This document shows, one piece after another, positions 1-35,058 of a stretch of 64,000 nt of DNA. Made by a program: the position numbers and the translations under genes. The stretch spans positions 116,836-180,835 of the forward strand of contig NW_027437435.1 in NCBI RefSeq assembly GCF_964204645.1, in the 5' to 3' direction. Position 1 is the first letter of the stretch. The number at the start of each line of letters is the position of its first letter. This stretch comes from Tubulanus polymorphus. Its lineage: Eukaryota > Animalia > Nemertea. The notes beneath the pieces are model-generated. The model was given only the letters and a program-made list of their open reading frames with translations. It was not told where the DNA came from and did not search any database.

Positions 1-21
1 TGATTTCTATATTTTTAAAAT

Positions 22-1534: not shown

Positions 1535-1614
1535 TTTAATACTATATTTTTTATTAAAATTGATTTTAGAAGTTCAATGATTTAAATGTTATTCATATAT
1601 ATGAATATTTTAAG

Positions 1615-13800: not shown

Positions 13801-16800
13801 AATATTCCCCCTATCGGAAAAACGACAATGTCGATGCGTAAAAGCGCTCAAATCGTCAGGAAAAGCCCTTTTCGACGCGAAAACGTCGTTCGGCGCGAGA
13901 AAAGACGTTTTCGTATCGAATATTCCCCCTATCGGAAAAACGACAATGCCGATGCGTAAAAGCGCTCAAATCGTCAGGAAAAGCACTTTTCGACGCGAAA
14001 ACGTCGTTCAGCGCGAGAAAAGACGTTTTCTTTTCGAATATTCCCCCTATCGGAAAAACGACAATGCCGATGCGTAAAAGCGCTCAAATCGTCAGGAAAA
14101 GCACTTTTCGACGCGAAAACGTCGCTCAGCGCGAGAAAAGACGTTTTCGTGTCGAATATTCTCCCTATCGGTAAAACGACAATGTCGATGCGTAAAAGCG
14201 CTCATATCGTCAGGAAAAGCACTTTTCGACGCGAAAACGTCGTTCAGCGCAAGAAAAGACATTTTCTTTTCGAATATTCCCCCTATCGGAAAAACGACAA
14301 TGTCGATGCGTAAAAGCGCTCAAATCGTCAGGAAAAGCACTTTTCGACGCGAAAACGTCGTTCAGCGCGAGAAAAGACGTTTTCTTATCGAATATTCCCC
14401 CTATCGGAAAACGACAATGCCGATGCGCAAAAGCGCTCAAATCGTCAGGAAAAGCACTTTTCGACGCGAAAACGTCGTTAAGCGCGAGAAAAGACGTTTT
14501 CGTATCGAATATTCCCCCTATCGGAAAAACGACAATGCCGATGCGTAAAAGCGCTCAAATCGTCTGGAAAAGCACTTTTCGACGCGAAAACGTCGTTCAG
14601 CGCGAGAAAAGACGTTTTCTTTTCGAATATTCCCCCTATCGGAAAAACGACAATGTCGATGCGTAAAAGCGCTCAAATCGTCAGGAAAAGCACTTTTCGA
14701 CGCGAAAACGTCGTTCAGCGCGAGAAAAGACGTTGTCGTGTCGAATATTCTCCCTATCGGTAAAACGACAATGTCGATGCGTAAAAGCGCTCAAATCGTC
14801 AGGAAAAGCGCTTTTCGACGCGAAAACGTAGTTCAGCGCGAGAAAAGACGTTTTCTTATCAAATATTCCCCCTATCGGAAAAACGACAATGTCGATGCGT
14901 AAAAGCGCTCAAATCGTCAGGAAAAGCACTTTTCGACGCGAAAACGTCGTTCAGCGCGAGAAAAGACGTTTTCGTATCGAATATTCTCACTATCGGTAAA
15001 ACGACAATGTCGATGCGTAAAAGCGCTCAAATCGTCAGGAAAAGCACTTTTCGACGCGAAAACGTCGCTCAGCGCGAGAAAACCCGTTTTCTTTTCGAAT
15101 ATTCCCGCTATCGGAAAAACGACAATGCCGATGCGTAAAAGCGCTCAAATCGTCAGGAAAAGCACTTTTCGACGCAAAAACGTCGCTCAGCGCGAGAAAA
15201 GACGTTTTCTTTTCGAATATTCCCCCTATCGGAAAAACGACAATGCCGATGCGTAAAAGCGCTCAAATCGTCAGGAAAAGCACTTTTCGACGCGAAAACG
15301 TCGCTCAGCGCGAGAAAAAACGTTTTCTTTTCGAATATTCCCCCTATCGGAAAAACGACAATGCCGATGCGTAAAAGCGCTCAAATCGTCAGGAAAAGCA
15401 CTTTTCGACGCGAAAACGTCGCTCGGCGCGAGAAAAGACGTTTTCTTTTCGAATATTCCCCCTATCGGAAAAACGACAATGCCGATGCGTAAAAGCGCTC
15501 AAATCGTCAGGAAAAGCACTTTTCGACGCGAAAACGTCGTTCGGCGCGAGAAAAGACGTTTTCGTATCGAATATTCCCCCTATCGGAAAAACGACAATGC
15601 CGATGCGTAAAAGCGCTCAAATCGTCAGGAAAAGCACTTTTCGACGCGAAAACGTCGTTCGGCGCGAGAAAAGACGTTTTCGTATCGAATATTCTCACTA
15701 TCGGTAAAACGACAATGCCGATGCGTAAAAAGCGCTCAAATCGTCAGGAAAAGCACTTTTCGACGCGAAAACGTAGTTCAGCGCGAGAAAAGACGTTTTC
15801 TTATCGAATATTCCCCCTATCGGAAAAACGACAATGTCGATGCGTAAAAGCGCTCAAATCGTCAGGAAAAGCACTTTTCGACGCGAAAACGTCGTTCGGC
15901 GCGTGAAAAGACGTTTTCGTATCGAATATTCTCCCTATCGGAAAAACGACAATGTCGATGCGTAAAAGCGCTCAAATCGTCAAGAAAAGCACTTTTCGAC
16001 GCGAAAACGTCGCTCAGCGCGAGAAAAGACGTTTTCGTGTCGAATATTCTCCCTATCGGTAAAACGACAATGTCGATGCGTAAAAGTGCTCAAATCGTCA
16101 GGAAAAGCACTTTTCGACGCGAAAACGTAGTTCAGCGCGAGAAAAGACGTTTCCTTATCAAATATTCCCCCTATCGGAAAAACGACAATGTCGATGCGTA
16201 AAAGCGCTCAAATCGTCAGGAAAAGCACTTTTCGACGCGAAAACGTCGTTCAGCGCGAGAAAAGACGTTTTCTTTTCGAATATTCCCCCTATCGGAAAAA
16301 CGACAATGCCGATGCGTAAAAGCGCTCAAATCGTCAGGAAAAGCACTTTTCGCCGCGAAAACGTCGTTCAGCGCGAGAAAAGACGTTTTCGTACCGAATA
16401 TTCTCACTATCTGTAAAACGACAATGTCGATGCGTAAAAGCGCTCAAATCGTCAGGAAAAGCACTTTTCGACGCGAAAACGTCGTTCGGCGCGAGAAAAG
16501 ACGTTTTCGTGTCGAATATTCTCCCTATCGGTAAAACGACAATGTCGATGCGTAAAAGCGCTCAAATCGTCAGGAAAAGCACTTTTCGACGCGAAAACGT
16601 AGTTCGGCGCGAGAAAAGACGTTTTCTTATCGAATATTCTCACTATCGGTAAAACGACAATGTCGATGCGTAAAAGCGCTCAAATCGTCAGGAAAAGCAC
16701 TTTTCGACGCGAAAACGTCGTTCAGCGCGAGAAAAGACGTTTTCGTGTCGAATATTCTCCCTATCGGTAAAACGACAATGTCGATGCGTAAAAGCGCTCA

Positions 16801-16905
16801 AATCGTCAGGAAAAGCACTTTTCGACGCGAAAACGTAGTTCAGCGCGAGAAAAGACGTTTTCTTATCGAATATTCCCCCTATCGGAAAAACGACAATGTC
16901 GATGC
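1883..16905 (+). repeat. 118-bp tandem satellite array, ~127 monomers, forward orientation
   Basis: Consensus AATATTCCCCCTATCGGAAAAACGACAATGTCGATGCGTAAAAGCGCTCAAATCGTCAGGAAAAGCACTTTTCGACGCGAAAACGTCGTTCAGCGCGAGAAAAGACGTTTTCGTATCG. Offsets between repeated spurious ORFs are multiples of 118. Confidence 0.98.
7306..14410 (+). repeat. Tandem duplication of a 3540-bp (30-monomer) higher-order unit
   Basis: Rare variants recur at +3540 (CGAATATGCC 7451/10991; CAGGTAAA ~7603/11143), as do ORF pairs 8265/11805, 8900/12440, 9327/12867 and 9962/13502. Confidence 0.92.
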
Positions 16906-18610
16906 GAAAAGTGCTTTTCTTGACGATTTGAGCGCTTTTACGCATCGACATTGTCGTTTTTCCGATAGGGGGAATATTCGATACGAAAACGTCTTTTCTC
17001 GCGCTGAGCGACGTTTTCGCGTCGAAAAGTGCTTTTCTTGACGATTTGAGCGCTTTTACGCATCGACATTGTCGTTTTTCCGATAGGGGGAATATTTGAT
17101 AAGAAAACGTCTTTTCTCGCGCTGAACTACGTTTTCGCGTCGAAAAGTGCTTTTCCTGACGATTTGAGCGCTTTTACGCATCGACATTGTCGTTTTACCG
17201 ATAGGGAGAATATTCGACACGAAAAGGTCTTTTCTCGCGCTAAACGACGTTTTCGCGTCGAAAAGTGCTTTTCCTGACGATTTGAACGCTTTTACGCATC
17301 GGCATTGTCGTTTTTACGATAGGGCGAATATTCGATACGAAAACGTCTTTTCTCGCGCTGAGCGACGTTTTCGCGTCGAAAAGTGCTTTTCCTGACGATT
17401 TGAGCGCTTTTACGCATCGACATTGTCGTTTTTCCGATAGGGGGAATATTCGATACGAAAACGTCTTTTCTCGCGCTGAACGACGTTTTCGCGTCGAAAA
17501 GTGCTTTTCCTGACGATTTGAGCGCTTTTACGCATCGACATTGTCGTTTTACCGATAGGGAGAATATTCGACACGAAAACGACTTTTCTCGCGCTGAGCG
17601 ACGTTTTCGCCTCGAAAAGTGCTTTTCCTGACGATTTGAGCGCTTTTACGCATCGGCATTGTCGTTTTTCCGATAGTGAGAATATTCGAAAAGAAAACGT
17701 CTTTTCTCGCGCTGAACGACGTTTTCGCGTCGAAAAGTGCTTTTCCAGACGATTTGAGCGCTTTTACGCATCGGCATTGTCGTTTTTCCGATAGGGGGAA
17801 TATTCGATACGAAAACGTCTTTTCTCGCGCCGAACGACGTTTTCGCGTCGAAAAGTGCTTTTCCTGACGATTTGAGCGCTTTTACTCATCGGCATTGTCG
17901 TTTTTCCGATAGGGGGAATATTCGATACGAAAACGTCTTTTCTCGCGCCGAACGACGTTTTCGCGTCGAAAAGTGCTTTTCCTGACGATTTGAGCGCTTT
18001 AACGCATCGACATTGTCGTTTTACCGATAGGGAGAATATTCGACACGAAAACGTCTTTTCTCGCGCTAAACGACGTTTTCGCGTCGAAAAGTGCTTTTCC
18101 TGACGATTTGAGCGCTTTTACGCATCGACATTGTCGTTTTTCCGATAGGGGGAATATTCGATACGAAAACGTCTTTTCTCGCGCTGAGCGACGTTTTCGC
18201 GTCGAAAAGTGCTTTTCCTGACGATTTGAGCGCTTTTACGCATCGACATTGTCGTTTTTCCGATAGGGGGAATATTCGATACGAAAACGTCTTTTCTCGC
18301 GCTAAACGACGTTTTCGCGTCGAAAAGTGCTTTTCCAGACGATTTGAGCGCTTTTACGCATCGGCATTGTCGTTTTTCCGATAGGGGGAATATTCGATAC
18401 GAAAACGTCTTTTCTCGCGCCGAACGAGGTTTTCGGGTCGAAAAGTGCTTTTCCTGACGATTTGAGCGCTTTTACGCATCGGCATTGTCGTTTTTCCGAT
18501 AGGGGGAATATTCGATACGAAAACGTCTTTTCTCGCGCCGAACGACGTTTTCGCGTCGAAAAGTGCTTTTCCTGACGATTTGAGCGCTTTTACGCATCGA
18601 CATTGTCGTT
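16906..18610 (-). repeat. 118-bp satellite, reverse orientation, ~14.5 monomers
   Basis: Reverse complement of the same monomer begins at ...GATGCG|AAAAGTGCTTTTC. Confidence 0.97.
18605..18610 (+). repeat. Left 6-bp target-site duplication GTCGTT
   Basis: GTCGTT|AGTAATT on the left and AATTACT|GTCGTT on the right. Removing the element and one copy restores an uninterrupted monomer. Confidence 0.95.
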
Positions 18611-18700
18611 AGTAATTAGAATATGTGGCTTTCATACCAGAGGACGAGAGGACGAGACACCACTCATCACCACAAGTAATTTTTTTTCCTAATAAATGGG
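18611..18700 (+). repeat. Left terminal inverted repeat (~90 bp), extending through the pPolB start codon
   Basis: Reverse complement of 34939-35058 apart from a ~30-bp duplication in the right copy. Confidence 0.95.
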
Positions 18701-21700
18701 GGAGAATGAACACCAACTAGAAAACAATAATGTCAATAAAAATCAATATTATTGTCAATATTGTAAAAAATACATCGATACATCTAATAAAACACGACAT
18801 GAAAAAACTGCAAATCATATAAAAAATGTAATAGATTTTGAAACTCCAGAAAATTCCAATGAAAGAAAAGAACGATTAGAAAATATGAATGTGAATGAAA
18901 TAAAATGTGAAGTTTGTGATGAATTTATAACAAAAAGGAATTATAATAGACATCTCGAAACAGAAAAATACCATCAAAATTTGAGAAATAATGTTTTAGG
19001 AATAGATTATTTTGATGATAAACCTCAACAAGTAAAAGAATCAACTTCAAAAACTAAATCCATTTCAAATAAACCTTACATGGAAAATGTTAGAAATTAT
19101 ATTGATTCACTAGAAATAAAAGATACAATTGAAATCTTAGAAACATTACATAGTAAAATTGGTCCTGCAGCTATTATATTTAGATTTTTTAAAGGTACAA
19201 CAATAGAAGATTATAGTAAATTTAATGAAATAATAGAAAAAATACTAGATTTGATAACAGATGTTGAATATCCAAAAATTAGTATCTCTGGGAAAGTAAG
19301 TTTTATAAAGTCAGAAGAAAAAATGAATTATAATATTCAAACACTCTCTGAAGAAATAATTTCAAAAACACAAATAAAAGAGAAGTTAGAAAAAATATTA
19401 AATGAATTTAAACGTCATATTGAAGAAAGATATTTTGAGGGTTCTGGCTTAACATTGAATGAAATTATATATTTAGATTTAAATGTTTATAATACAAAAA
19501 GGAATAAAACATCAAAAAGTAATAAAATGTTTAAAAATGATTCAAACACTTCAACAGAAAAGGATATGAAAGCATCAAGTTATATCAAATTACCGTTTAC
19601 AACAAAAGCAGTAATAAATATTCAAAATGAAGATAATAAATGTTTTCTATGGTCAATTATTAGTTGTTTACACCAAACAGAAGATATGACGCATAGTTTT
19701 AGAATAACAAATTACCAGAAATATGAAACATTATATAAAATTGATCAATATCCAGTAACTATCCAGTAACTAAAATGATTCCTAAAATAGAAAAAATTAA
19801 TAATTTAAAAATAAATGTATTCGAATTAATGCAATTACCAAAGACAAAAGGTGAAAATATTAAAGATTATACATTGGAAGCTTTATATTTAACAGAATAT
19901 TATGATGATGAAAATGCTATAGATTTGTTATATTATAAAAAAGATGAAAATGAACATTATATGTGGTAAAACAAATTGATTTATTCTTTAGAACGGAAAG
20001 TGATCATCATCGTAAAATTTATCTATGTAGAAAATGTTTATCTAAATTTATGACTGAGAATACATTATTAAAACATAAAGAATTATGTGATAATAAAGAT
20101 TTTTGTAAATTAATAATGCCAACAGAAAAAGATTATAAATTGAAATTTACTAATCATAAATTTAAGAATATTGTTCCATTTGTTCCATTTGTAATTTATG
20201 GGGATTTTGAATCGTTGAATAAAGAATTAACTGATCAAGATAGAAAAGAAATATATAACAAAAAGCAATTATTAAAATCAATGGATAAAGGAAATGAATT
20301 AAATGAAGACGCAACACAAGACCCACCAATTATAAATACAATTTAAAAAGTTCATCAAAGAGCTGCTGCTTATGGAATTTACATCAAATCAAATTATCCC
20401 GAATTATATGAAAGTCAATATATTTCTTTTAGAGGTGAAAATGTAGTTAATGATTTTTGTGATAAAATGATTGAATTAGAAAGTGATTTTACAAAATTAT
20501 TAAACAAAAATAAAAGAAAAGTTATGACAAAAGAAGATGAAATTGATTTTAATTATGCAACTCATTGTTGTTATTGTGAAAAACGTTTTTATTCATTTGA
20601 TAAAAGAGTTAGAGATCATGATCATTTGAATTCAAAATATCGTGGAGCTTCTCATGAAGATTGCAATTTACAAGCTAAAAAAGTAAATTTCGTACCAATA
20701 TTATTTCATAATTTATCAGGATATGATACCCATCTATTTATAAAACAATTATCGGGAAAATTGGGCGCAATTAATCAAGAAATAGAAGAATATAATGCTA
20801 TGAATGAAGCAAATGTAAGAAAATATGATTTTAAACTATTAGCTAAAACATCTGAAAATTATATTTCATTTCAATTTGGTTGCATTAGATTTTTAGATTC
20901 TTATAGATTTCTAGCAAGTTCATTAGATAATTTATCAAAAAGTTTAGTTGATAATGATTTTGTTATAACTCGATATTATTATCCAAATGAACAAGATTTT
21001 AAATTATTGAGATATAAAGGCGCAATTCCTTACTCATTTTATAAAACACACGATGATTTTAATGTAACAGAATTATTAAAAGATCAATTTTATGATCAAT
21101 TAAAAGAGGAGTATGTGAAAGACGAAGTGTTTAATAGAACATTAAATATTTGGAACCATTTTAAGATGAAAAATCATGGGGAATTAGTTGATTTATATTT
21201 AAAATCAGATGTTATGATATTGGCTGACATATTTGAAAAGTTTAGAGAAGTTAATCTAAACCATTTTAATGTTGACCCTTGTTATTGTTATTCAAGTCCT
21301 GGTTTAACCTGGCAATGTGGTTTAAAATATACAAATGTAGAATTAGATTTATTAAATGAACCAGATATGGTTTTATTATTTGAAAAATCAATTAGAGGTG
21401 GAATTAGTGGTGTTATGGGAGATAGGTATTTTAAAGCAAATGATGAATATAAATTATTATATATTGACGCCAATAATTTATATGGTTGGGCAATGATGCA
21501 ACCTCAACCATATACAAATTTTATATTAACAGAAGTTGAAAATGATGATAAAACTAATTGGGAAAGCGCAATTATGAGTTTAGAAGATGAAGCACCAATT
21601 GGTTATTTCTTTGTAGTTGATTTAGAATATCCTGATAACATAAAGTTTAAAACAAGAAACTTACCTTATTGCCCAGAACATTTAACTGTAGATGATAGTT

Positions 21701-23781
21701 ATTTAAGTGAATACCAGAAGAAAATAAAACCGAAAGATCATGTTTTTACAGAAAAATTAATACTTACTCAAAATAATAAATACAATTATATTGTTCATTA
21801 TAGAATGTTAAAATTTTATCTAAAACAAGGAATGAAATTAAAGAAAGTACATAGATATATTGAATTTAATCAATCGAAGTGGTTAGAAAAATATATAGAT
21901 TTCAATACTCAACAGAGAACAATATCAAAAACAGATTTTGAAAAAGATTTCTTCAAATTAATGAATAATAGTTTTTATGGTAAAACATGTGAAAATATTA
22001 GAAATAGAAATGATATTGAATTAGTAAATAATTCTGAACGATTGAGACACCTACAATCAAGTCCTAGACATTTAGGAAATAAAAGGTTTGAGGATTATTT
22101 GACCGCGGTAAAATTAAAAAGAACGTCAATGAAATTTAATAAACCTATTTTCATTGGTTCAACAGTTTTAGAAATATCAAAATTATTAATGTATAATTTT
22201 TATTATAATGTTTTACAACCATTGTTTGGGGAAAAACATATAGAAATTCTGTACTTCGATTCTGTAACGGCCGACACCCCAATATTATTAAAATGTAATA
22301 ATAAAATATTGGTAAGAAGAATTTCAGAAATAATTCCAAAACAAAATGAATGTTATATTTCATATGGAGAAAAAGAATTAATACAAATAAATGGATTAAT
22401 GGATGTTTGGACAAGAAATGGATGGAAAAAATTAAAGAATATTATTAGGCATAAAACAAATAAGAAAATCTATAGAGTTAGAACTAAATTAGGATTCGTA
22501 GATGTTACTGAAGACCATAGTTTAATTAAACGAAATGGTGATGAAATAAAACCAACTGATATAAAAATTGGAGATGAATTATTACATAAAAGATTTTTCC
22601 AAAGAATGAATCTTAAGTCATTTGATGAAATAATTGATAATATTTATAATATAGAACCTGAAACATTAGAAGAAAAAGAATATTTTATCAAAGGATTTTT
22701 CATGGGTGACGGTTCAGCAGGTGTGTATAAATATGTTTGGGGTAATAAATATTGTTGGTATTTATGCAATCAAGACTTAAAATTATTAGAAAGAATTAAG
22801 AAATTTTGCGAAGAAGTTTATTCACATAAAACATTTAGAATCATGGATGTTATGAAATCATCAGCAGTTTATAGAATACTTGTAAATAATCCTAAAGATT
22901 TTGCTATAGAATATAATGATGAATTCTATATTCATGCAATAGTGAAAAGTAATACTTCAACTAAAGAAAAAATAGTACCAGATTATATATTAAATTCAGA
23001 ATATAATCTTAGAAAATGGTTCTTCATTGGGTTCTACGCAGTCGATGGTACTAAAAAATTTACAAAGGATAAAAAGATAACCTTTACACAGAAAGGAAAA
23101 GTTGCGATATCAGGGTTAAATATATTATGTAATTCATTAGGTTTCAATATGAATATTGGATTGATTAAATCTAAACCAAATTGCTTTAATCTAAGCCACA
23201 CAGAAAAAGATTTAACTGAAGAAGTTAAAGATTTATTTGAAATATATAACCCAACTGACTATGTTTATGATTTATCAACAGATGATGGAACATTCAATTC
23301 TGGGTTCCCATTAATCCAAAAAAATACTGATGCGTACATACTAAAAATGAAGACAAATGACATAACGAAAGACTTAAAAACATTAAAACATCATTTTGAT
23401 TTTAGCAATTATGCTAAAGATCATGAACTATTTAGCAATGATAATAAAAAGATTCCTGGTAAATTTAAAGATGAATTAGGGGGTGATGAAATGATTGAAT
23501 TTGTTGGGATAAGAAGTAAAATGTATAGTTACAGAACAAAAGATCACGAAGCTAAAAAGTTAAAAGGAATAACAAAACATGTGGTTGATAAACATATAGA
23601 ATTTCAAGATTATATAAAGTGTTTATATAAATCAATTGTAATGAAACACAAGATGAATTGTTTAAGATCAGAAGATCATGAGATGTACATTAATGAAGTT
23701 GAAAAAACTAGTTTGAATCCATTTGATGATAAAAGGCATATTTCAGATGATGGTATAAAAACATTACCTTATGGTTATTAA
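18696..23781 (+). pseudogene. polB: Protein-primed family B DNA polymerase polyprotein (zinc fingers, putative terminal protein, OTU-like protease, exonuclease with EndoVII-like insert, polymerase with intein), disrupted
   Basis: Motifs IYGDFES (ExoI), FHNLSGYD (ExoII), YLKSDV (ExoIII), YIDANNLYG (A), KLMNNSFYGK (B), YFD|TD (C), GKFKDE, KMY and KLKGI. Split into four ORFs by an 11-bp duplication (19749-19770), a 1-bp deletion (~19967) and an in-frame TAA (20344-20346). Confidence 0.95.
22261..23325 (+). mobile_element. Intein (355 aa) with LAGLIDADG homing endonuclease, in pPolB motif C
   Basis: LYFD|SVTADTPI...IQKN|TDA; block B VTEDH; two LAGLIDADG-like motifs IKGFFMGDG and FIGFYAVDG; block F VYDLST. 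Confidence 0.95.
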
Positions 23782-25079
23782 AACATAAAATCAATATCAT
23801 CATACTCGAAATCACTATTGGCTTCTTCATTTTCATTTAATTGTTCAGGTTCTTCTTCCATTCCATTTTTCTCATTTAAATAAAGTTCTATCTTGTTCCA
23901 CATTTCATCTCGCTCTCTTTGTTTCTTTTTGTTTGTTAATTCATCAAATGGAATTATAATATCTAGGTTTAAATAATTTACAATCTTATTTAAAAAGAAT
24001 TCATAATTTATTGAATCTGTTATTCTATTTTCCAAATGATACATTAATATTTGTTTAAATATTTTTTTTATATTTTCCATATCTTCTTCTGTTAATTTAG
24101 GTTTTTCATAATAATCGTTAAATAATAAATATAAATACATTTTCTTTTGTTTTGTGTTAAATGTTGGTGGAATAATTGTTTTTATAATATCTTTTTTAGT
24201 TATTTCACCATTTTTATTTTCTATTATTTTCATTTTTTCAAGCCATTGCATATATTCTGGTGTATGATCTTCTATAGAAAATATTTTAAAAATTTCATCT
24301 AGATAATTTAATTTTGGTTCTATGAGAAAATCTCTAGTTTTTTCTTCACCCCATAAATTCTTTTGCCATCCACATTCAACACAAAATAACACAGTACCTT
24401 CTTGCCTTAAGGTCGCATAACTACATTGTGGGCATTTTTGTTTATAATTTCTTGGTAATAGATCTTCATTAAGCTCTTGGTATTTTCTTACGTTTTCTTT
24501 ATGTTTTATTGTTCTATTATGTAGATTTGAATTACTTGTTGTAATAATCAATTTACAATATTTACAATAATATGTTTTTCTTGTTAATTCATTATATTGT
24601 TTTTCTAACTTTTCAACTGTTTCTTTATTATCTGGTAACGTTTTCTCATATTTTATTTTTTCTAATAAATTATTTTTTCTTTCATTGAATTCAGTTTCAA
24701 ATTTATTAGAAATTTTATCTATATGTGCTTTACGAAATTGATGATTCTCCCAATCTTCTATATTTTCAGGGTTATATTTTACTTGACAAGGCTCACAGAA
24801 ATAATCTTTTATATTATCCTTATCATAGAATAAGAAAGGTCTTTTCCAAATAACTTCAGGTTCAACTTCAGCAGAATTACTATCAACATTAGCTGTTGCA
24901 CCATTAATTCTACACTTCTCTGAATGTTTTTTAACATAATTTCTTGAGAATAATTTATTACATTTTGGACAGTTTATTTTAGGGGGTTTATAATTTTCAT
25001 CATGTTTTTTCATATGTCGAGCCATATTACTTTTTCTTAGAAGTTCACCACAAATTTCGCATGCTATCTTCTCATCCAT
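23778..25079 (-). CDS. Multi-zinc-finger protein with a C-terminal VLTF3 (poxvirus A2)-like late transcription factor region
   Basis: About four C2H2/C2HC fingers, then a CPQC-x13-CVECG zinc ribbon and SINYEFFLNKI...IPFDELTNKKKQRERDEMWNKI, resembling the recalled VLTF3 C-terminal pattern (Y.Y.L.K....L......P.LK...K....D..W..I). Confidence 0.7.
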   Translation of the reverse strand: MDEKIACEICGELLRKSNMARHMKKHDENYKPPKINCPKCNKLFSRNYVKKHSEKCRINGATANVDSNSAEVEPEVIWKRPFLFYDKDNIKDYFCEPCQVKYNPENIEDWENHQFRKAHIDKISNKFETEFNERKNNLLEKIKYEKTLPDNKETVEKLEKQYNELTRKTYYCKYCKLIITTSNSNLHNRTIKHKENVRKYQELNEDLLPRNYKQKCPQCSYATLRQEGTVLFCVECGWQKNLWGEEKTRDFLIEPKLNYLDEIFKIFSIEDHTPEYMQWLEKMKIIENKNGEITKKDIIKTIIPPTFNTKQKKMYLYLLFNDYYEKPKLTEEDMENIKKIFKQILMYHLENRITDSINYEFFLNKIVNYLNLDIIIPFDELTNKKKQRERDEMWNKIELYLNEKNGMEEEPEQLNENEEANSDFEYDDIDFMF

Positions 25080-25147
25080 TTATTAAGGAATAATTTTATT
25101 AAAATTAATTTTTAGTGATGAGCGGTAATTTTTTTATGTTATAAATA

Positions 25148-25909
25148 ATGGTAGAATTAAAAGAATACAGAATATTTATTGATTCTAGAAAACTTACAAA
25201 TTATAAATCTCATAATTTACTAGTACAATTAGATAGAGAATTCAAGAATTGTGTAGATTTAAAATTAGTTAATATAAGTTTATGTAATTCTTTTTACAAT
25301 GTATCGGATAAGTCTATTGAACATAGAGTCTTTTTAGTTTTTAATAAAAATAAAAATGAATGGGTCTATATATATTTAAAACCAGGGTTATATAATTTAG
25401 ATACATTAGCACAAGAAATTAATAGAAAAGCCTGGCACAAATTAGGTAGTAGTTCTGGGTTTAGTATTAGATTTTTAAAAAGTGAGAGTTCTGATAGAAT
25501 AAAGATAAGGTTGTCTAATAGTGAAAAACATAAACTTATGGTAAAAAAACCTATAGCTAAACTGTTAGGAATTCTTCCAGATAGATCTTTTACAAATATT
25601 GATGCTACTACACCAAACTTAATACCTTACACACATTTTTATATTTATTGCAATTTAATCGATCCTACAAAAACATTCGAAGCAACTAAAGATATAACTT
25701 GTAATTCTGGTTTACTAAACATTTTACCATTGAAGAATGTTAAAGAATTTGGAACGCAAATAAATTATAATTTAACAGAATGTGATTTCAAACCATGCAT
25801 TCCTAGTTTTAATAATTTTAGATTAGAAATTAGAAATCATAATGGATACTTAATTGATTTAAATAATTTCCCTGTAATTTATGAATTAGTTATAAGATGT
25901 AAAGAGTAA
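25148..25909 (+). CDS. Minor capsid protein (penton, single jelly roll)
   Basis: Penton-like pattern: IFIDSR, SFYNV, PGLYN, FYIYCNLI, LNILP, FRLEIRNHNGYLIDLN; beta-rich. Confidence 0.8.
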   Translation: MVELKEYRIFIDSRKLTNYKSHNLLVQLDREFKNCVDLKLVNISLCNSFYNVSDKSIEHRVFLVFNKNKNEWVYIYLKPGLYNLDTLAQEINRKAWHKLGSSSGFSIRFLKSESSDRIKIRLSNSEKHKLMVKKPIAKLLGILPDRSFTNIDATTPNLIPYTHFYIYCNLIDPTKTFEATKDITCNSGLLNILPLKNVKEFGTQINYNLTECDFKPCIPSFNNFRLEIRNHNGYLIDLNNFPVIYELVIRCKE

Positions 25910-25926
25910 TTTTTTTCACTATATAA

Positions 25927-26268
25927 ATGAATATAACTGTTGGACCGAGTATATGTTTTGGGTTTGATTTTAAACATGGTAAAGAAATGAGAATTAAACT
26001 AAATGATGTAATTACTGATATAAAAAGTAAATCATTTAACAATGCATCAATGATTGATAAAGAAAAGTATAATATAGAAAAAGTAATTGATTTAATTAAA
26101 TCACCTTTAGAATATTATGAATTAAATGAAGATGGAATTATTGAAGATATTAAAAACATATTAACCAAAATATATGATAATCATAAAACTAGTAATGAAA
26201 TAAATGTTGAATTAATCATAAATAAGTTAACTAAATATTTTGATGATAGTAATTTTTTTGATAAATAA
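25927..26268 (+). CDS. Hypothetical protein
   Basis: 113-aa ORF with TAAATG start, in the collinear gene block. Confidence 0.75.
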   Translation: MNITVGPSICFGFDFKHGKEMRIKLNDVITDIKSKSFNNASMIDKEKYNIEKVIDLIKSPLEYYELNEDGIIEDIKNILTKIYDNHKTSNEINVELIINKLTKYFDDSNFFDK

Positions 26269-26490
26269 ATGAGTGATAATAAGTGGATAATAACTGGATT
26301 ATATAATGGCGCATTACTATCAGTTGGAACTGTTGGTTATTCAATGGTATTAAAAAAAGTATTCAAAATGGGAAGTGTTAATGTTGATAGATTTGATATA
26401 AATGATATTCTAAAATTAACATTAGCAGTTACTTTATCTAATTTAACTATTGATTACTTGGAAAAACAAAAATATATTCCTCCCATATAA
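26269..26490 (+). CDS. Small hydrophobic protein, putative virion membrane protein
   Basis: 73 aa, two moderately hydrophobic segments, TAAATG start abutting the upstream stop. Confidence 0.75.
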   Translation: MSDNKWIITGLYNGALLSVGTVGYSMVLKKVFKMGSVNVDRFDINDILKLTLAVTLSNLTIDYLEKQKYIPPI

Positions 26491-26514
26491 ATACATAATT
26501 TTTTTGTTAAATAA

Positions 26515-26937
26515 ATGGCTTCTGCAATTATAACTATTATAGGATCAGCAATTGTTAACGCTTTAGCATTTACTGGTGGTGGTTATTTATTTAAACATAT
26601 TGATAAAAATAGTTCATTAGGAGAACAAAGAAGACATAACTTAGCGTTAGAGAAATACAATAAAGCTGCAGAAGAATATAGAGAAAAGAGACAAAACTAT
26701 ATGGATTATATTAACAAAGAATTATATGATCAGAAGATTTCACACAGAGATTTTCAATCAGTTGATGATGCAATGAGTTTATATAACGCAGTAACAAATA
26801 AAGAAAAATTACATCTATACAAACCTAAATTATCAGATTATTATACCCCAAGTAAAGAACAACAGAAATATGAAATAATATGGATTTTAGGTGGAACTGT
26901 TATTGTTATATTTGTTGCTTATAAATTTACTAATTAG
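26515..26937 (+). CDS. Putative membrane protein (N- and C-terminal hydrophobic helices, central helical region)
   Basis: MASAIITIIGSAIVNALAFTGGGYLF...RHNLALEK...IIWILGGTVIVIFVAY; TAAATG start. Confidence 0.8.
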   Translation: MASAIITIIGSAIVNALAFTGGGYLFKHIDKNSSLGEQRRHNLALEKYNKAAEEYREKRQNYMDYINKELYDQKISHRDFQSVDDAMSLYNAVTNKEKLHLYKPKLSDYYTPSKEQQKYEIIWILGGTVIVIFVAYKFTN

Positions 26938-26956
26938 TAATTTTTATTCTAAATAA

Positions 26957-27391
26957 ATGGAAGATAAAGTTGATAGTATTGATATTATTCCTCATGATAT
27001 AAATAAAACTAAATTAAAAACATATTTAGAAAAACAAATATTAGAATTTGAAAGTGACTTAAAGATAAAAAAGAAAAAATATTTAAAATCTAAAATTATA
27101 GATTATTTGATTATAAGTGGTTCGGTTACAATTAGTTCTGTAATAACATTTCTAGCAATATTCAGTCCATTAACACCTTTAGCTATATCAATTGGTGTAT
27201 TAGGATTAAGTTCAAGTGTTTTAACTGGTATAAGTTCAAAATTAAATATAAAAAGTAATAAAGAAAAAATTAAAACTAATATAAAAGAAATTAATAAATT
27301 AAAGAATACACTAGATTATATAATAAGTTTAAATGGTCATATAACAGTTGAAGAACAAGATAAATTATTAAAAGAATTAGTTAATTATTAA
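26957..27391 (+). CDS. Two-TM-helix protein with flanking coiled coils
   Basis: Hydrophobic hairpin at aa ~51-95; TAAATG start. Confidence 0.8.
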   Translation: MEDKVDSIDIIPHDINKTKLKTYLEKQILEFESDLKIKKKKYLKSKIIDYLIISGSVTISSVITFLAIFSPLTPLAISIGVLGLSSSVLTGISSKLNIKSNKEKIKTNIKEINKLKNTLDYIISLNGHITVEEQDKLLKELVNY

Positions 27392-27407
27392 TTTTTTAAT
27401 TATATAA

Positions 27408-28709
27408 ATGGGGTTTCCAAAAGCTTTCCAATATAATAAATCAATTAAATATAATATTCCGGCAATAGATTTTAAGAAAAATATTACATATAAAAATATA
27501 GTTTTAAATTCATTAACTAATTTAGAAATTTATGTTAATGAATCACAGTTTTTTATTTCTAAAATGGAAAATATATTTAATACATATGAAGTTACTTTTA
27601 CTCGAGATGAATATCATATATATAAAGTAAAATCTAATATGAAATATTGGCAGAATCAATTAAATTTTGCTGTTTATTGTGCAACAACAGGATGTGGAAT
27701 TAGTTGGAATGATCATTTAAATAACTTAGATAAAAATTTGAAGTATTCTGATTTAAAATTAATTCACACAATATTTAGATTTCACACATATTTTCAAATC
27801 AGAATAATATTAAATGAATTAGAATGTCCTTTACCCGGGTCTAAATATTTTAAAGAATTGGATAATAATATTAATATATCCAAGTTTTATAAAATATGTA
27901 ATGAATTTAATATAAATATTAATTCCGATTTCAGAGCGCATGGTAAATTGCAAGGTGTTGGTGAACAGTAGGAAATAAAAAGAATTGATTATATGCATAG
28001 AATTGGAGCTTATCATAATTATAAAATTGATAATAATAATGGTTGGGTTAATTTCATTTTAGAAAATGGTGAAGGTTTTACAAAATCAGTTATACAAAGA
28101 ATAAATCAATCTATTAGAATTTATTTGATATGTATTTTAGGCGCTCAAGTTGAAACAAGATCCCCAATAATTGGAAATGATAACACTTCATTCGATGCGC
28201 AGAAACAGTTTAAAGTTTTATTTGAAGATTCAATTCATAATTATAAAAATAGATCGATTCCAGAAAACATTATAAGATATCAAAATTATTTAGATAAATC
28301 TCATGTAAGACTAAATTATTGTATAGGCCCTAATCTATTAATTATTTCTAATGATTTAGTATTAAAGATGGGAAACATAATTGGTTATAATAATCTAATT
28401 AAAACTGCAACAATAAATAATTCATTTGGGTTAAATGATATAAATAAAAAGATTATCACTGCTCCAAAATTAATGGAAGGTGAAAAAAATAAAAAACACA
28501 TTCAATCAACTGAAACTAAAACTAAGAATATTAAATTGGATAATGATTCCAAAATAAAAGATTACAATACATCAGAAAATATAAAAACTGATAAAATTCA
28601 ACATGATATAATTAAAACTGATAATGATAATAAATCACATGAAAATACTAAATTAGCTATAACTTGTATAGGAATTGTAATCGGAGGAATATTATATTTT
28701 AAATTTTAA
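27408..28709 (+). pseudogene. Polinton protein of unknown function with C-terminal TM anchor, interrupted by one in-frame TAG (27969-27971)
   Basis: ORFs 27408-27971 and 27993-28709 are in the same frame and only the first has a TAAATG start. Motifs QLNFAVYCATTGCG and ILGAQVETRS. Confidence 0.75.
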
Positions 28710-28726
28710 TTTTTTTTATTATATAA

Positions 28727-30166
28727 ATGGAAGTAGAAGGTGTAGAAGATATTGGAATGGATCCTTTTGATGAACCTGGTATAACTGATGAACAACCACC
28801 TGATTTTGATGAAACAAGTTTCAGTAACGAAAATGAAACAGCATATAATTCTAATTTAGCAAGACCTGATACCAATGAATATGTTAATAAAGCACGTTCA
28901 AGATTGGATATTGAAAATGAAAATCCAGATTTAATGAAAAAAGAACTAGAATATGACGAATTAACAGATAAATTCAAACCAATATTAGAAAAATCTGGAT
29001 TCAATATAACAAATAAAGGTGTGAATTATTTAGTAAAAGATTTGAAATATTTAAATGGTGATTATTATTGGCATTTGAAAGATGACTATTATTTTAAGAT
29101 TTCTTCTAATAAAAGTCTTGATAAAATAATAACAAAATCAACTTTTATTAAATTAGAACAATCTAAAATTAAAAAAATCAATAATGATGTTATAACTGAT
29201 GTTACAGAAGAAGAGATAAATCAAAATAGAAGAGAATTTAATCGAAGAAATAATGATTTTTTGAAGATAATTAATGAAAATTTAGAACCAGAAACAATTC
29301 CTAAAGAAGATAAAACTTCCAAAACTAGTAGACCTAATTCAAGAGAAGTTCAAACTGAAAAACTTTTACCGAAGGGATTACTTGATGCAACAGATCAAGA
29401 ATTAGAAGATTTAGATATATTTTCTGATAAAGCAATTAGAGAAATTATTAGTATAAGACTTGCATCTGATAAAATTGCACATAATAAAAGTATAAGAGAT
29501 TTTAAAATTAGAACTTTAGAAAAAGAATTAACTGATAAAAATAAAGAAATAGAACAATTAAAGTCTGATTTAGATCATCAAGTAATTGATGAAATAGAAT
29601 ATAGGCAAAAAGAATTACGTTTAGAAAAAGAAAAAGATGATTTAGAATATAACATAGAATTACAAAAAGAAGAAATTAAATTATTGTTAAAATCATATGA
29701 TTATAATATTAATAGATTAAAAGTTATTTTTAAAGATTTGTTGATTAAACCAAATTCTGAAATATCACTAAAAGACAGAATAAGATTATTATTTAAATTA
29801 GAAGGAATAACAATTCTTTCAATTCTAACAGCTGTAACTATGTTATTCACAACAATAGGTTTAGCAATATCAAATGCTTTGAAATCTACTCCTACTCCCA
29901 ATAAACCAGATAAACCTCCAGGTAATAATTCTATACAAGATAAAGTTAAGGATGGTTTAAAGAAATTAGCAAAATATTTATGGGAACTATCTAAAAAATC
30001 TGCTGCAGCATTGCCAGGAGTTATTGCTTCAATTGTTGGTTTTATATTGAAATCTGCAGGAAACATTATTAACTTTGCTGCTGAACATATTATTTTATTT
30101 TTAATTACGGTTGTAAGTGCTATTATTTTTGGTTTAGTAAATATGATATCAAAAAATATCAAGTAA
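28727..30166 (+). CDS. Acidic/coiled-coil protein with C-terminal hydrophobic helices (putative membrane-active or virion protein)
   Basis: 479 aa; DETSF motif, coiled coil at aa ~255-330, EGITILSILTAVTMLFTTIGLAI and ALPGVIASIVGFIL. Confidence 0.8.
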   Translation: MEVEGVEDIGMDPFDEPGITDEQPPDFDETSFSNENETAYNSNLARPDTNEYVNKARSRLDIENENPDLMKKELEYDELTDKFKPILEKSGFNITNKGVNYLVKDLKYLNGDYYWHLKDDYYFKISSNKSLDKIITKSTFIKLEQSKIKKINNDVITDVTEEEINQNRREFNRRNNDFLKIINENLEPETIPKEDKTSKTSRPNSREVQTEKLLPKGLLDATDQELEDLDIFSDKAIREIISIRLASDKIAHNKSIRDFKIRTLEKELTDKNKEIEQLKSDLDHQVIDEIEYRQKELRLEKEKDDLEYNIELQKEEIKLLLKSYDYNINRLKVIFKDLLIKPNSEISLKDRIRLLFKLEGITILSILTAVTMLFTTIGLAISNALKSTPTPNKPDKPPGNNSIQDKVKDGLKKLAKYLWELSKKSAAALPGVIASIVGFILKSAGNIINFAAEHIILFLITVVSAIIFGLVNMISKNIK

Positions 30167-30207
30167 ACCATGATAAAAAATAAATAATTAATTTTTTTGT
30201 TAAATAA

Positions 30208-31455
30208 ATGAGTGGGAGTTATATAAGCCCTTCCAAGATTTCTAGAATATCTAATGCTATTAAAGCAGAAAGATCACATCATATAATTACTCATAACCCT
30301 TCAAATATTAATCCCGATGAAACTTTATATGTTAGAATTCCTAGATTAACACAAAATACTTTTTATGTTCCAAATAGTATTTATTTATCAGCTGATATAA
30401 AAGTAATCGGTAATAACAATAATTATGTTGTTGATGATGTTGGAAGATATTTGATTAAAAAGTTAACAATAAAGATTGGTCCAGAAACAGTTTTCTCATT
30501 AGATGATTATAATTTATTTATGCATTATAAAGATTTATGGTTAACTAAAGAAAATAGAAATAATATGATATTTCAGGGTATTCAATCAGAAAACCAAAAT
30601 AAATTAAGATCAGAAGCTAATAGCGCAATATTAACAAATGATGTAGATAAATTGATAAAAAGTATATATGGAAGCAAATATAAAATTCCATTAGACTTTG
30701 AATTGATAAATAATAATGCACCTTTATATAAATACGCAATTCAAGAAGATATTATATTTGAGATAACATTTGCTCCTGTAAATGAAATTGTATTATCTAG
30801 CGTTAATAAAGATATGAGTTATAAATTATCGAATATATGTTTAGAATATGATACAGTAACTGATGAAAATATTTCAAGTATAATTCAAACTAAATATAAT
30901 CAAGGGTTTTCATTATTATATGATTATATTGATAAATTTAAAACTGTAACTATTAATGCAAATGATGAAATAATTAATGAGAATATTAACTTTCCTAGAA
31001 GATCTATTAAAGGTATATTAATATTTTTTACTATTGCAACATATTCTAATGGTGCAATAAATGTTGATAATTATTATAATCCTGAAATAACAAAAGTAGA
31101 AATAACTATCGAAGGAATAGCGAATAAAATATTTTGTCAAGGAATGAGAATGATTGATCAATGGCCAGAAATTAAAAAACATTTTATGAATGAAAAAGTA
31201 AAATCATTTGAAAATTGTAATATTAATCAAATTGATTATTATACCGGTAATAAATATGCATTATGGTTAGATTTTAGAACAACAGAGGATAATTCATTAC
31301 ATGGTTCTGGGAAAAAACTACAAAATACAAAAGATGGAATACAATTATTCATGACAAAGAATAAAGGAATCAAAAATTTTAAAATGCATATTTATATTAT
31401 ATCTGACGCGCAATTAAATATTGTAAATTCACAATTAGATAGTATTCAATATTAG
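30208..31455 (+). CDS. Major capsid protein (double jelly roll)
   Basis: 415 aa, beta-rich, next to integrase and ATPase; NPSNINPDETLYVRIP, NICLEYD, RSIKGILIFF and LWLDFR patterns as recalled for polintovirus MCPs. Confidence 0.8.
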   Translation: MSGSYISPSKISRISNAIKAERSHHIITHNPSNINPDETLYVRIPRLTQNTFYVPNSIYLSADIKVIGNNNNYVVDDVGRYLIKKLTIKIGPETVFSLDDYNLFMHYKDLWLTKENRNNMIFQGIQSENQNKLRSEANSAILTNDVDKLIKSIYGSKYKIPLDFELINNNAPLYKYAIQEDIIFEITFAPVNEIVLSSVNKDMSYKLSNICLEYDTVTDENISSIIQTKYNQGFSLLYDYIDKFKTVTINANDEIINENINFPRRSIKGILIFFTIATYSNGAINVDNYYNPEITKVEITIEGIANKIFCQGMRMIDQWPEIKKHFMNEKVKSFENCNINQIDYYTGNKYALWLDFRTTEDNSLHGSGKKLQNTKDGIQLFMTKNKGIKNFKMHIYIISDAQLNIVNSQLDSIQY

Positions 31456-31485
31456 AAATATAAAGTTAAAATTAAGGATATATAA

Positions 31486-32613
31486 ATGAGTGGTAAAAAA
31501 ACTCCTAATACTAAAGAACAATATTTAAGAAATTTATATTACAACCCTGAGAGTTCGGTTGCTTATTCTTCTACTAAAAATATATGGCGTAAAGTAAAAC
31601 AAGATAAATTAGATAAGATAATCCCACAAAATTTAGTTAAATATAAAGATAAAAATGAATTTATGTTAGAACAACCAACATATACAACACATAAAAAAAT
31701 TGTTAGAAAATATAAAACTCGTAAAACTATGGTAAGTTATGTAGATCAACAGTGGCAAGGAGATTTAATTGATATGAAAAATCTTAAAAAAGATTATAAT
31801 GATTATTGGTGGATATTGAATATAATTGATATTTTTAGTCGTTATGTATGGAGCTTCCCACTTTATAGAAAAGATGCTGCACAAACATCACATGTTTTAA
31901 GAAAATTTCTTTCAGGTGGTAAACTAAAACCAGAAAAAATACAATTTGATGATGGAAAAGAATTTGATAATTCATTAGTTCATGGACTTTTAGATTTTCA
32001 TAATATTAAATATTTTTCAACAAAATCAGATAAAAAAGCAGCAGTTGTTGAACGATTTAATAGAACATTAAGAACAAGAATGTGGAAATATTTTACAGCA
32101 AATAATACTTTGAAATGGATTGATATTTTACCAAAATTGATAGAAGGATATAATAATTCTTATCATTCTTCTATTGGAATGAAACCTATTAATGCTAGAA
32201 AACCTGAAAATGCTGAAATTGTTTGGAATAATTTATATGGAGCATTTCTTATAGATGATTTTGGTGAATCTAAATTTAAAGTTGGTCAAAATGTTAGAAT
32301 TTCTAAGTATAAAAAGATATTTGATAAAGGATACGATCGAAATTTTACTAGGGAAATATATAAAATAAAAAAGGTAATAACAACAAAACCATATGTCTAT
32401 AAATTAGAAGATTTAGATGGTGAAGAAGTTGATGGCTACTTTTACGAAGAAGAATTAAGTTTAACTACTGAAAATCTAGAACAAGAATATAAAATTGAAA
32501 AAGTACTAAAAACAAAAACTGTTAAAAGAAAAAAATATTCTTTAGTAAAATGGGTTGGATGGCCAGATAAATTTAATGAATGGATATTATCAAGTAAAAT
32601 TAAAAATATATAA
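31486..32613 (+). CDS. int: Retroviral-like (rve) DDE integrase with C-terminal chromodomain
   Basis: WQGDLID, IDIFSRY, QFDDGKEF, VVERFNRTL and YNNSYHSSIGMKP; chromodomain YKIEKVL...LVKWVGWPDKFNEWI. Reading frame intact. Confidence 0.95.
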   Translation: MSGKKTPNTKEQYLRNLYYNPESSVAYSSTKNIWRKVKQDKLDKIIPQNLVKYKDKNEFMLEQPTYTTHKKIVRKYKTRKTMVSYVDQQWQGDLIDMKNLKKDYNDYWWILNIIDIFSRYVWSFPLYRKDAAQTSHVLRKFLSGGKLKPEKIQFDDGKEFDNSLVHGLLDFHNIKYFSTKSDKKAAVVERFNRTLRTRMWKYFTANNTLKWIDILPKLIEGYNNSYHSSIGMKPINARKPENAEIVWNNLYGAFLIDDFGESKFKVGQNVRISKYKKIFDKGYDRNFTREIYKIKKVITTKPYVYKLEDLDGEEVDGYFYEEELSLTTENLEQEYKIEKVLKTKTVKRKKYSLVKWVGWPDKFNEWILSSKIKNI

Positions 32614-33222: not shown

Positions 33223-33223
33223 A

Positions 33224-33486
33224 TTCAACTAGCTTGTTAATCTAATTGAATTCTAGTTGAATTCTAGTTATTGGTAGTTGTAACAAAAATCAACTAGATT
33301 TAACAATATTTTAACTAGCTTGTCAATCTAGTCTAATTCTAGTTACATTCTAGTTGAATTCTAGTTGTTAGTAGTTGAAACAAAAATCAACTAGATTTAA
33401 CAAGAAATAAACAAAAACAACAATATTTCAACTAGCTTGTTAATCTAGTTGAATTCTAGTTACATTCTAGTTGAATTCTAGTTGCA
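33224..33486. repeat. Intergenic CTAG-rich compound repeat (three units of ~85-115 bp built from 11-bp ATTCTAGTTGA subunits)
   Basis: AACTAGCTTGT starts three units (~33227, ~33313, ~33430); CAAAAATCAACTAGATTTAACAA occurs twice. Confidence 0.85.
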
Positions 33487-33517
33487 ACATCACACAATTA
33501 ATTTATTTGTTTTATAA

Positions 33518-34616: not shown

Positions 34617-34943
34617 TTAATCAACAATTTCTAAATCATGATGACCGTCTTCATTTTTCCCATGATATATTATTTTAAATCCTACTAAATCTTTCAATTC
34701 CTCCGTACTCAATGAAACCCATTTATCGGGTAAAAACACTTTAAATTCTCGTGATGTACTAACATTACAGTAGCTTAAATTAGCTGATACTTTCTCTCCA
34801 TATTTAGTTTTTATCTTTTCTAATTTCAATATTTTATGTTCAATTTCTTTTGTAACATCAACTAACTTTTTTATTTCAAATTGTTTTTTTGCTGGTTTTA
34901 TTCTGTTATTTATTGTTGCTAAGAATGCTTTTCTATCTCCCAT
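34617..34943 (-). CDS. Small beta-rich protein, possible OB-fold ssDNA-binding protein
   Basis: TKYG...KVFLP pattern; starts inside the right TIR with the same upstream sequence as polB. The function is inference. Confidence 0.65.
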   Translation of the reverse strand: MGDRKAFLATINNRIKPAKKQFEIKKLVDVTKEIEHKILKLEKIKTKYGEKVSANLSYCNVSTSREFKVFLPDKWVSLSTEELKDLVGFKIIYHGKNEDGHHDLEIVD

Positions 34944-35058
34944 TTATTAGGAAAAAAAATTACTTGTGGTGATGAGTAGGAAAAAAAAATTACTTGTGGT
35001 GATGAGTGGTGTCTCGTCCTCTCGTCCTCTGGTATGAAAGCCACATATTCTAATTACT
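34939..35058 (-). repeat. Right terminal inverted repeat with internal ~30-bp tandem duplication
   Basis: TAGGAAAAAAAA(A)TTACTTGTGGTGATGAG occurs twice (34948-34976 and 34977-35006). Confidence 0.95.

Follow-up and report, generated by a model that had tools for sequence, protein, structure and literature searches.

A Polinton element in Tubulanus polymorphus encodes a four-finger VLTF3-like protein and carries candidate promoters of the poxvirus late type

Few genes are common to all giant-virus families, and VLTF3 is among them. What such a gene might do on a small integrating element is the question raised by a locus in the nemertean Tubulanus polymorphus, where a Polinton/Maverick element of 16,448 bp (positions 18611–35058; 23.7% GC) lies within the stretch of DNA analysed here (the window; 64 kb, contig NW_027437435.1, positions 116,836 to 180,835). 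An earlier note on this DNA had described one of the genes of the element, hereafter the target gene (P0001), as a zinc-finger array fused to a VLTF3-like late transcription factor that could redirect or poison the transcription machinery of a helper. We conclude that the C-terminal half of the encoded protein is a divergent but genuine VLTF3. As to function, we see an even chance that this factor, with its four fingers and VLTF3 core, activates the putative T-run/TAAATG promoters of its own element, likely by tethering an RNA polymerase, which is possibly that of a poxvirus-lineage helper.

When 1.84 billion representative proteins were searched by phmmer with the full-length protein (threshold E ≤ 1e-3), 23 matches were obtained, 19 of which cover the N-terminal fingers only. 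Four reach further, namely P0003 (697 aa; 45% identity; E 8e-87), P0004 (446 aa; 33%; E 1e-31), P0010 (281 aa; C-terminal domain only) and P0017 (226 aa; E 1e-4; residues 275–401). P0017 is a bona fide VLTF3 as judged from its matches to Pfam Pox_VLTF3 (E 1.3e-24) and A2L_zn_ribbon, and its identity to a named VLTF-3, that of Choristoneura rosaceana entomopoxvirus, amounts to 62%; the target itself also matches this entomopoxvirus protein in BLASTP (E 3e-9; 36% over 75 residues). Alignment with hhalign of four Polinton-type C-terminal domains against five entomopoxvirus-type VLTF-3 proteins gave a probability of 96.75% and E 3.1e-10 over 135 columns. The Pfam profile PF04947 (Pox_VLTF3; cutoff 25 bits), against which the earlier note had proposed to check the protein, is passed by the C-terminal part when taken in isolation, both as residues 205–433 (27.0 bits; E 4.2e-6) and as the last 119 amino acids (29.1 bits; E 9.6e-7). 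In the ESM Atlas, 28 of 30 feature matches were Pox_VLTF3 clusters (top score 0.95). The ribbon cysteines C216, C219, C233 and C236 correspond to invariant columns common to the five entomopoxvirus-type proteins, and the ribbon is located directly N-terminal to the helical core, as in the VLTF3 family. Identity to entomopoxvirus VLTF-3 over the domain is only 20–26%. A word-indexed homolog search with the full protein returned none of 4990 candidates at E ≤ 1e-3, and when profile A6 of the C-terminal part was used, nothing came up beyond the five entomopoxvirus-type VLTF-3 proteins that it contains. A scan of PHROGs and a tblastn search against phage records gave no match.

Structure prediction points in the same direction. 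AlphaFold2 models, each based on a 9-sequence alignment, were obtained for the full-length protein (pLDDT 72.5) and for the C-terminal domain (pLDDT 77.6; pTM 0.63) and compared by Foldseek with BFVD, whose entries are themselves predicted models and not solved structures. The top match of the domain was cowpox VLTF-3 (E 2.6e-6; TM 0.56/0.57), and MSV065 of the entomopoxvirus MsEPV was also found (E 2.1e-5). With both models VLTF3 proteins came first, from cowpox virus, two entomopoxviruses, Megaviridae, a pandoravirus, a marseillevirus and a Tetraselmis virus, with B385R of African swine fever virus lower in the list. For full-length protein and domain alike, seven of 11 matches at E ≤ 1e-3 were named VLTF3 or late transcription factor, the others being unnamed or otherwise labelled. 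The structural comparison suggested by the earlier note thus revealed a resemblance of the target to VLTF3 models of pox-, entomopox-, mimi-, pandora-, marseille-, phycodna-like and asfarviruses and, together with the sequence matches described above, it supports the VLTF3-like identity that had been proposed from the spacing of the zinc ribbon and the helical tail.

The TFIIB-like cyclin fold, which the same note had named as a possible point of reference, received a more ambiguous answer. When the domain was compared with the PDB by VIA, the best match was 7o4i_M (Z 6.9; 93 residues; 3.8 Å), which from the entry title we take to be a chain of a TFIIB-containing preinitiation complex (PIC). 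The top 14 rows, presumably all of them TFIIB-type PIC, ORC6 and cyclin entries, ranged from Z 5.8 to 6.9 and none reached 8, the value below which helical matches may be generic. Foldseek found no PDB match at E ≤ 1e-3. A TFIIB/cyclin-like fold of the modelled core is therefore only suggested: the signal in VIA is weak and consistent, but it is not accompanied by a Z score of at least 8 or by a match in the PDB profile search. The order of parts is that of TFIIB, TFB and Brf, i.e. an N-terminal zinc ribbon, a linker and a helical domain of putative cyclin-like fold; however, the target has one cyclin-like repeat instead of two, the Z scores are below 8, and no signal is present at the sequence level.

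What distinguishes the protein from poxvirus VLTF-3 (vaccinia A2L; NCVOG0262/PF04947), with which it shares the C4 ribbon followed by a helical core, is the addition of about 205 N-terminal residues with four fingers and of a 29-residue acidic tail. The fingers were recognized by the pattern CX2C...HX3-5H in combination with a family profile or structure match. ZF1 (ligands C7/C10/H22/H26) and ZF2 (C37/C40/H52/C56), as read from the sequence, resemble fingers of CTCF in a phmmer search of PDB sequences (1x6h; E 7.9e-5) and in a Foldseek superposition (8ssq_D; probability 1.0; rmsd 2.7 Å; 61 columns). ZF3 was assigned on the basis of its ligand pattern and of the equivalent finger in the homolog P0004, which matches zf-C2H2_jaz (E 6.6e-6). 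ZF4, which is preceded by long helices at residues 117–167 in the structure model, matches Pfam zf-U1 (E 1e-6; 28.9 bits, cutoff 22). The "about four" fingers of the earlier note are thus indeed four, and other parts of its description proved accurate as well: the C4 ribbon (three short strands in the predicted models) begins with C216 at about position 24434, residues 253–404 are helical in the predicted models, and the tail contains 12 acidic and no basic residues. This tail is predicted to be disordered (pLDDT below 50 in both models), and in-frame length variants of it occur in contigs from runs X1 and X2.

Fusion of fingers with a VLTF3 core is rare. Among the 1.84 billion representatives it was found in the target and in two other clusters only (P0003/P0030/P0031; P0004), and a large ESM Atlas cluster with this architecture does not appear to exist because the best score for the whole protein was 0.76. 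All 20 metal ligands are kept in the five fused homologs (five of five; 33–46% identical), with one C-to-H change. In P0004 (L002, 243–1583) the peptide AAGGSGA... is present at two sites, both without a counterpart in the other homologs, and may represent small inserted repeats. Scans of IMG/VR with alignment A2 and with P0010 uncovered no relative, a scan with alignment A3 retrieved only two entomopoxvirus genomes, and a scan of the GTDB genome contigs gave no match. The convergent arrangement of the VLTF3 gene and the gene of the protein-primed family-B DNA polymerase (pPolB) recurs in the metagenome contigs L001 and L003, which are probably overlapping parts of one element because the sequence upstream of their VLTF3 genes is identical. 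There, however, the pair is located at the opposite end of the element, beside a deoxynucleoside kinase gene. The latter (L003, 9260–9901, minus strand; Pfam dNK, E 1.7e-31) is divergent from the VLTF3 gene and is absent from the element in the window.

A second line of evidence concerns the DNA on which the factor may act. The hexamer TAAATG, with its ATG as start codon, is present at 14 of 18 open reading frames (ORFs) of the element. When only genes starting with ATG are counted, the figure is 14 of 17, as compared with two of 28 other ORFs of at least 30 aa (Fisher p 4e-7). Nine copies of the composite motif TAATTTT-N6-14-TAAATG are present, each of them at a start codon, while 0.15 ± 0.38 occurrences (maximum 2) are expected from 300 second-order Markov simulations. 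TAAATG starts are likewise found in the relatives (13 of 14 ORFs in L003, two of two in L001, one of one in L002). Altogether, 31 gene starts were compiled, excluding two internal pieces of the window pPolB gene, an L003 ORF with a TTG start and the L003 copy of the L001 VLTF3 start. A matrix built from the 28 upstream regions of genes other than VLTF3 shows TAATTTTTTT at −19 to −10, a 6-nt spacer and TAAATG at −3 to +3. By contrast, the VLTF3 genes of the window, L001 and L002 lack the T-run and share, by eye, TTTAATAAAA at −24 to −15 in identical register. As outlined in the cited passages of PMC5294985 and PMC11980589, a poxvirus late promoter consists of a T-containing, A/T-rich core, a spacer of 5–7 bp and TAAAT(G/A) over the start codon, and the motif of the element has this layout of core, spacer and TAAATG. 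The TAAATG start is also common to the target gene and the VLTF-3 genes of entomopoxviruses, which begin with ...ATAAATAA followed directly by ATG at two of two loci (L004, L005). We infer that the T-run/TAAATG motif is a promoter. A CTCATCAC box that appeared to be common to the promoters in the terminal inverted repeats (TIRs) and to the VLTF3 upstream region was rejected, as it is not conserved in L001/L003. The integrase and ATPase genes (31486–32613 and 32614–33222) have in common an upstream core GTAAAATTAA followed by TATATAAATG, which is kept at the ATPase gene of L003 (L003 7390) and may represent a third promoter class.

These candidate promoters bear on the idea of a "poison" put forward in the earlier note. 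A decoy that competes with the VLTF3 of a helper and thereby blocks or diverts its late transcription, be it as protection of the host or as parasitic interference, would be in keeping with the homology of the target to the helper-type factor, and interference of virophages, and likewise of Polinton-like viruses (PLVs), with giant viruses is documented. Yet no defect is visible in the sequence, ribbon ligands and the conserved core block being intact, and the matching promoters on the element's own genes offer a simpler, positive role. Because these promoters resemble the poxvirus late type, a factor driving them is favoured over a poison, which we regard as improbable. The domain architecture, the VLTF3 homology, the conservation of the fusion and of the pPolB pairing in relatives, and the fixed register of the motif before most genes of this element and of its metagenomic relatives are established; that the factor acts on the motif is a prediction.

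How the factor could work may be pictured as follows. The VLTF3-like protein would be made from its own A-rich promoter (the TTTAATAAAA core), which would place its gene in an earlier class, much as A2L of vaccinia virus switches on the late genes; according to PMC11980589, an A-rich sequence upstream of TAAA characterizes the intermediate promoters of vaccinia, and A2L (VLTF-3) belongs to the intermediate genes. The factor would then act on the T-run/TAAATG promoters, with the CTCF-like finger pair providing sequence-specific DNA binding, while a polymerase would be contacted by ribbon, cyclin-like core and acidic tail. That this polymerase would come from a poxvirus-lineage helper virus is the weakest step of the proposal. 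Here the target differs again from poxvirus VLTF-3, since it is encoded by a 16-kb integrating element that lacks an RNA polymerase of its own: in none of the 17 ORFs scanned with Pfam was an RNA polymerase or capping domain found. Given that the element has neither of these enzymes and that TAAATG promoters leave no templated 5' leader, a helper of the poxvirus lineage is in our view the most likely source of polymerase. Poxvirus late transcripts begin inside TAAAT, and their 5' poly(A) leader is non-templated. The same conclusion is favoured by the base composition of the element, which is far more AT-rich than its surroundings. A precedent for gene flow from poxvirus relatives into Polintons lends further support: a preprint (bioRxiv 10.1101/2024.03.23.586382) reports that protist Polintons have received a gene from egoviruses, which are relatives of poxviruses in gut protists.

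The main rival of a helper-dependent factor is an autonomous activator that uses RNA polymerase II (Pol II) of the host in the nucleus, in which case no helper would be involved and TAAATG would serve as the initiator of nearly leaderless host mRNAs. The genomic setting provides arguments on its behalf. The element is identified as a Polinton/Maverick because Pfam detects in it a protein-primed family-B DNA polymerase (DNA_pol_B_2; E 2.1e-19), an rve integrase (E 1e-8) with a Chromo domain (E 2.3e-4) and an A32-type packaging ATPase (Pox_A32; E 1.3e-12), and these hallmarks are complemented by the TIRs. It is integrated and multi-copy in the host genome, and an integrase with a chromodomain points to a nuclear, chromatin-targeted life cycle. 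Moreover, the VLTF3 core is weakly similar to TFIIB/cyclin folds (Z 6.9), and we take the acidic, aromatic-studded tail to resemble activation domains that act on Pol II. Some anaerobic protists start transcription a few bases from the ATG. On the other hand, the arrangement of core, spacer and TAAATG fits the poxvirus late promoter in three separate features, and the GC content of the element (24%) stands apart from that of the satellite around it (45%). In addition, VLTF3 is otherwise, according to PMC4542343, a hallmark of viruses with a polymerase of their own. In our judgement transcription by host Pol II is possible but rather unlikely.

Several observations weigh against activation of the element's own promoters by a VLTF3-type factor. 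The PF04947 match spans only profile positions 84–164 of 168, which leaves the first half of the profile unmatched in the target; the full-length protein has no Pox_VLTF3 match in Pfam at E ≤ 1, and the A2L_zn_ribbon model is not matched by the C-terminal domain at E ≤ 10. The PDB profile search did not produce a match below E 0.1, and there is no solved VLTF3 structure to which a mechanism could be anchored; to our knowledge, the working mode of VLTF-3 has not been established even in vaccinia virus. AT-richness (24% GC here, 17–19% in entomopoxviruses) could inflate both the protein similarity and the likeness of the motifs. The gene for pPolB, a replication gene, has a "late-like" T-run motif, which is at odds with a simple pox-like division into early and late genes. 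Finally, the TAAATG start could be an initiator of host type in a protist with very short 5' untranslated regions.

The presence of a VLTF3 gene on a PLV or Polinton is already known, and in this respect the kind of gene is not new. Small Polinton-type elements (PLVs, polintoviruses, MELD viruses) with VLTF3 are mentioned in the cited passages of PMC9356565 (citing Yutin 2015) and PMC11131425 (citing Krupovic and Koonin 2016), and further reports are contained in a figure legend of PMC8502044 and in part of bioRxiv 10.64898/2026.06.19.733378. In these passages, neither an N-terminal finger array nor promoters of the pox late type are mentioned. Neither the fusion with fingers nor a Polinton-wide set of pox-late-type promoters paired with an own VLTF3 was found in the open literature searched, and both the four-finger VLTF3 fusion and the promoter set look new. 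The promoter set has a counterpart in the mimicry of helper promoters by virophages and PLVs, where likewise nearly every gene is preceded by a short conserved motif that looks like a late promoter from a lineage of large DNA viruses; Mavirus shares the TCTA motif of CroV. This "TCTA" is given as the CroV late promoter motif in the relevant passage of PMC5294985. The motif described here, by contrast, is of the poxvirus late type (T-run, spacer, TAAATG) and not of the mimivirus lineage, the element has a VLTF3 of its own, and the helper is hypothetical. It is tempting to speculate that this multi-copy Polinton family parasitizes, in the manner of a virophage, a virus of the poxvirus lineage (Pokkesviricetes, such as an egovirus-like virus of a protist), whose polymerase it would capture by means of its own DNA-targeted VLTF3 and a complete set of pox-late-type promoters. 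We put this forward tentatively, as an idea with a minor chance of being correct; if true, the poxvirus branch of giant viruses would have its first candidate hyperparasite, and a helper virus would remain to be discovered in this host. Since the target joins VLTF3 to a built-in finger array, with a small and uniform set of candidate promoters on the same 16-kb element, it offers a compact system in which the DNA bound and the polymerase recruited by a VLTF3 could be determined directly. The coordinates of the features are compiled in Table 1.

Table 1. Position of the target gene, its encoded parts and associated features of the Polinton element (window coordinates)
Feature	Position	Strand	Remarks
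Terminal inverted repeats	18611-18703 and 34936-35058		77-nt arm 100%, 42-nt arm 98% complementary
Target gene (P0001)	23778..25079	-	Intact 433-aa ORF, ATG start; four zinc fingers and VLTF3 core
ZF1 and ZF2 (residues 4-57)	24909..25070	-	Classical C2H2/C2HC pair, CTCF-like; CTCF matches
ZF3 (residues 93-120)	24720..24803	-	CX2CX14HX5H, JAZ/matrin-like; ligands C95/C98/H113/H119
ZF4 (residues 169-200)	24480..24575	-	U1-type; ligands C172/C175/H187/H193
C4 zinc ribbon (C216/C219/C233/C236)	24357..24440	-	Aligns with A2L-type ribbon of entomopoxvirus VLTF-3
Helical VLTF3 core (residues 253-404)	23868..24323	-	Seven predicted helices; models, profile and fold matches
Acidic, aromatic-studded C-terminal tail (residues 405-433)	23781..23867	-	12 D/E, 0 K/R, 4 aromatic of 29
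pPolB	18696..23781	+	Convergent with target gene, 4-bp overlap at stops; three frames, intein-like insertion
Divergent intergenic region	25080..25147	.	Minus: TTTAATAAAA core and TAAATG of target gene; plus: T-run motif of 253-aa gene
T-run/TAAATG motif, pPolB start	18677..18698	+	Inside left TIR
T-run/TAAATG motif, 113-aa gene start	25907..25929	+	
T-run/TAAATG motif, 73-aa gene start	26250..26271	+	
T-run/TAAATG motif, 140-aa gene start	26496..26517	+	
T-run/TAAATG motif, 144-aa gene start	26938..26959	+	
T-run/TAAATG motif, 187-aa gene start	27389..27410	+	
T-run/TAAATG motif, 479-aa gene start	28707..28729	+	
T-run/TAAATG motif, 415-aa gene start	30189..30210	+	
T-run/TAAATG motif, 108-aa gene start	34941..34962	-	Inside right TIR

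The gene map agrees with the earlier note in that the element has two minus-strand genes, the target gene and one at 34617–34943, and that the target gene is divergent from the structural block, with 68 bp between it and the gene starting at 25148. It should be added that this block (25148–31455) is called structural on account of its position alone. Its ORFs of 415, 479 and 253 aa gave only a DUF5901 match in Pfam, which with E 0.0039 is below threshold.

Raw DNA reads from a second sample that carries the same species label (run X6, of which about 12% was read) provide information on other copies of the element. No RNA run was among the sequencing runs listed as containing it. A total of 46,558 reads could be placed on it, 3,013 at 99% identity or more, 21,777 at 95–99% and 21,768 at 90–95%. 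This spread indicates that the Polinton family is multi-copy and diverged. The part comprising pPolB and VLTF3 has roughly one-third of the depth of the block between 26 and 31 kb, and 314 reads depart from the window exactly at 25147, the base before the start codon at 25148, which implies that many copies have a different neighbour at this position. Together these data suggest modular variants within the family, in line with the gene order of L003/L001.

In this copy of the element, pPolB extends over three reading frames when compared by tblastn with the unbroken 1336-aa ortholog of L001, the frame changes being located near 19760–19766 and near 19966. At least one of the two breaks is absent from most copies, as is evident from reads of the second sample. 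Since the broken pPolB may render this copy non-autonomous, one could ask if the neighbouring VLTF3 gene is a decaying relic devoid of present function. Its ORF is intact, however, the ligands are conserved across homologs with 33–46% identity, and many copies exist in the second sample of the species, and we consider decay highly improbable. An insertion of about 1,020 bp in pPolB (approximately 22303–23322) is missing from the L001 ortholog. Weak, below-threshold Pfam matches to Intein_splicing (E 7.5e-5) and LAGLIDADG_3 (E 0.0017) make this insertion a probable homing-endonuclease intein.

The pPolB protein has fingers of its own. Its N-terminus (18696–18990; P0002, residues 1–98) contains a zf-U1 finger (26.2 bits, cutoff 22; E 6.6e-6) and a C2H2-like finger, and the L001 pPolB carries the same N-terminal finger (E 0.0011). 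The pPolB fingers are related to ZF4 and ZF1 of the target, with 46% identity over 35 aa and 47% over 19 aa, respectively. This paralogy, together with the fact that the convergent pPolB/VLTF3 pair is kept as a unit in L001 in spite of its different site there, could be taken to mean that the target is an accessory of replication or of the genome ends, its fingers recognizing DNA of the element jointly with the protein-primed polymerase. We judge such a role to be quite improbable, because the family to which the C-terminal half belongs is known only from transcription, A2L being needed for late transcription in vitro (work cited in PMC11980589), and because Pfam does not detect a replication-type domain in the target. 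Activation of the element's own promoters is the function that we prefer.

Most of the window outside the element is filled by arrays of a 118-bp satellite with about 45% GC (1883–18610 and 35058–64000; 95% matches). The satellite flips its orientation at approximately 16905–16915. Its orientation is identical to the left and to the right of the Polinton, and the element is inserted within the array. The left edge of the window (1–1880) is non-satellite and AT-rich (30% GC) and contains two minus-strand ORFs and a 21-bp tandem repeat at 663–758; an ORF at 1265–1534 has a weak zf-U1 match (E 0.0081), and no nucleotide similarity to the Polinton was detected in this stretch or over 1–1900. Within the element, an 11-bp tandem repeat (TCTAGTTGAAT) forms three short arrays (33241–33484) in the 295-bp gap that separates the ATPase gene from the next ORF.

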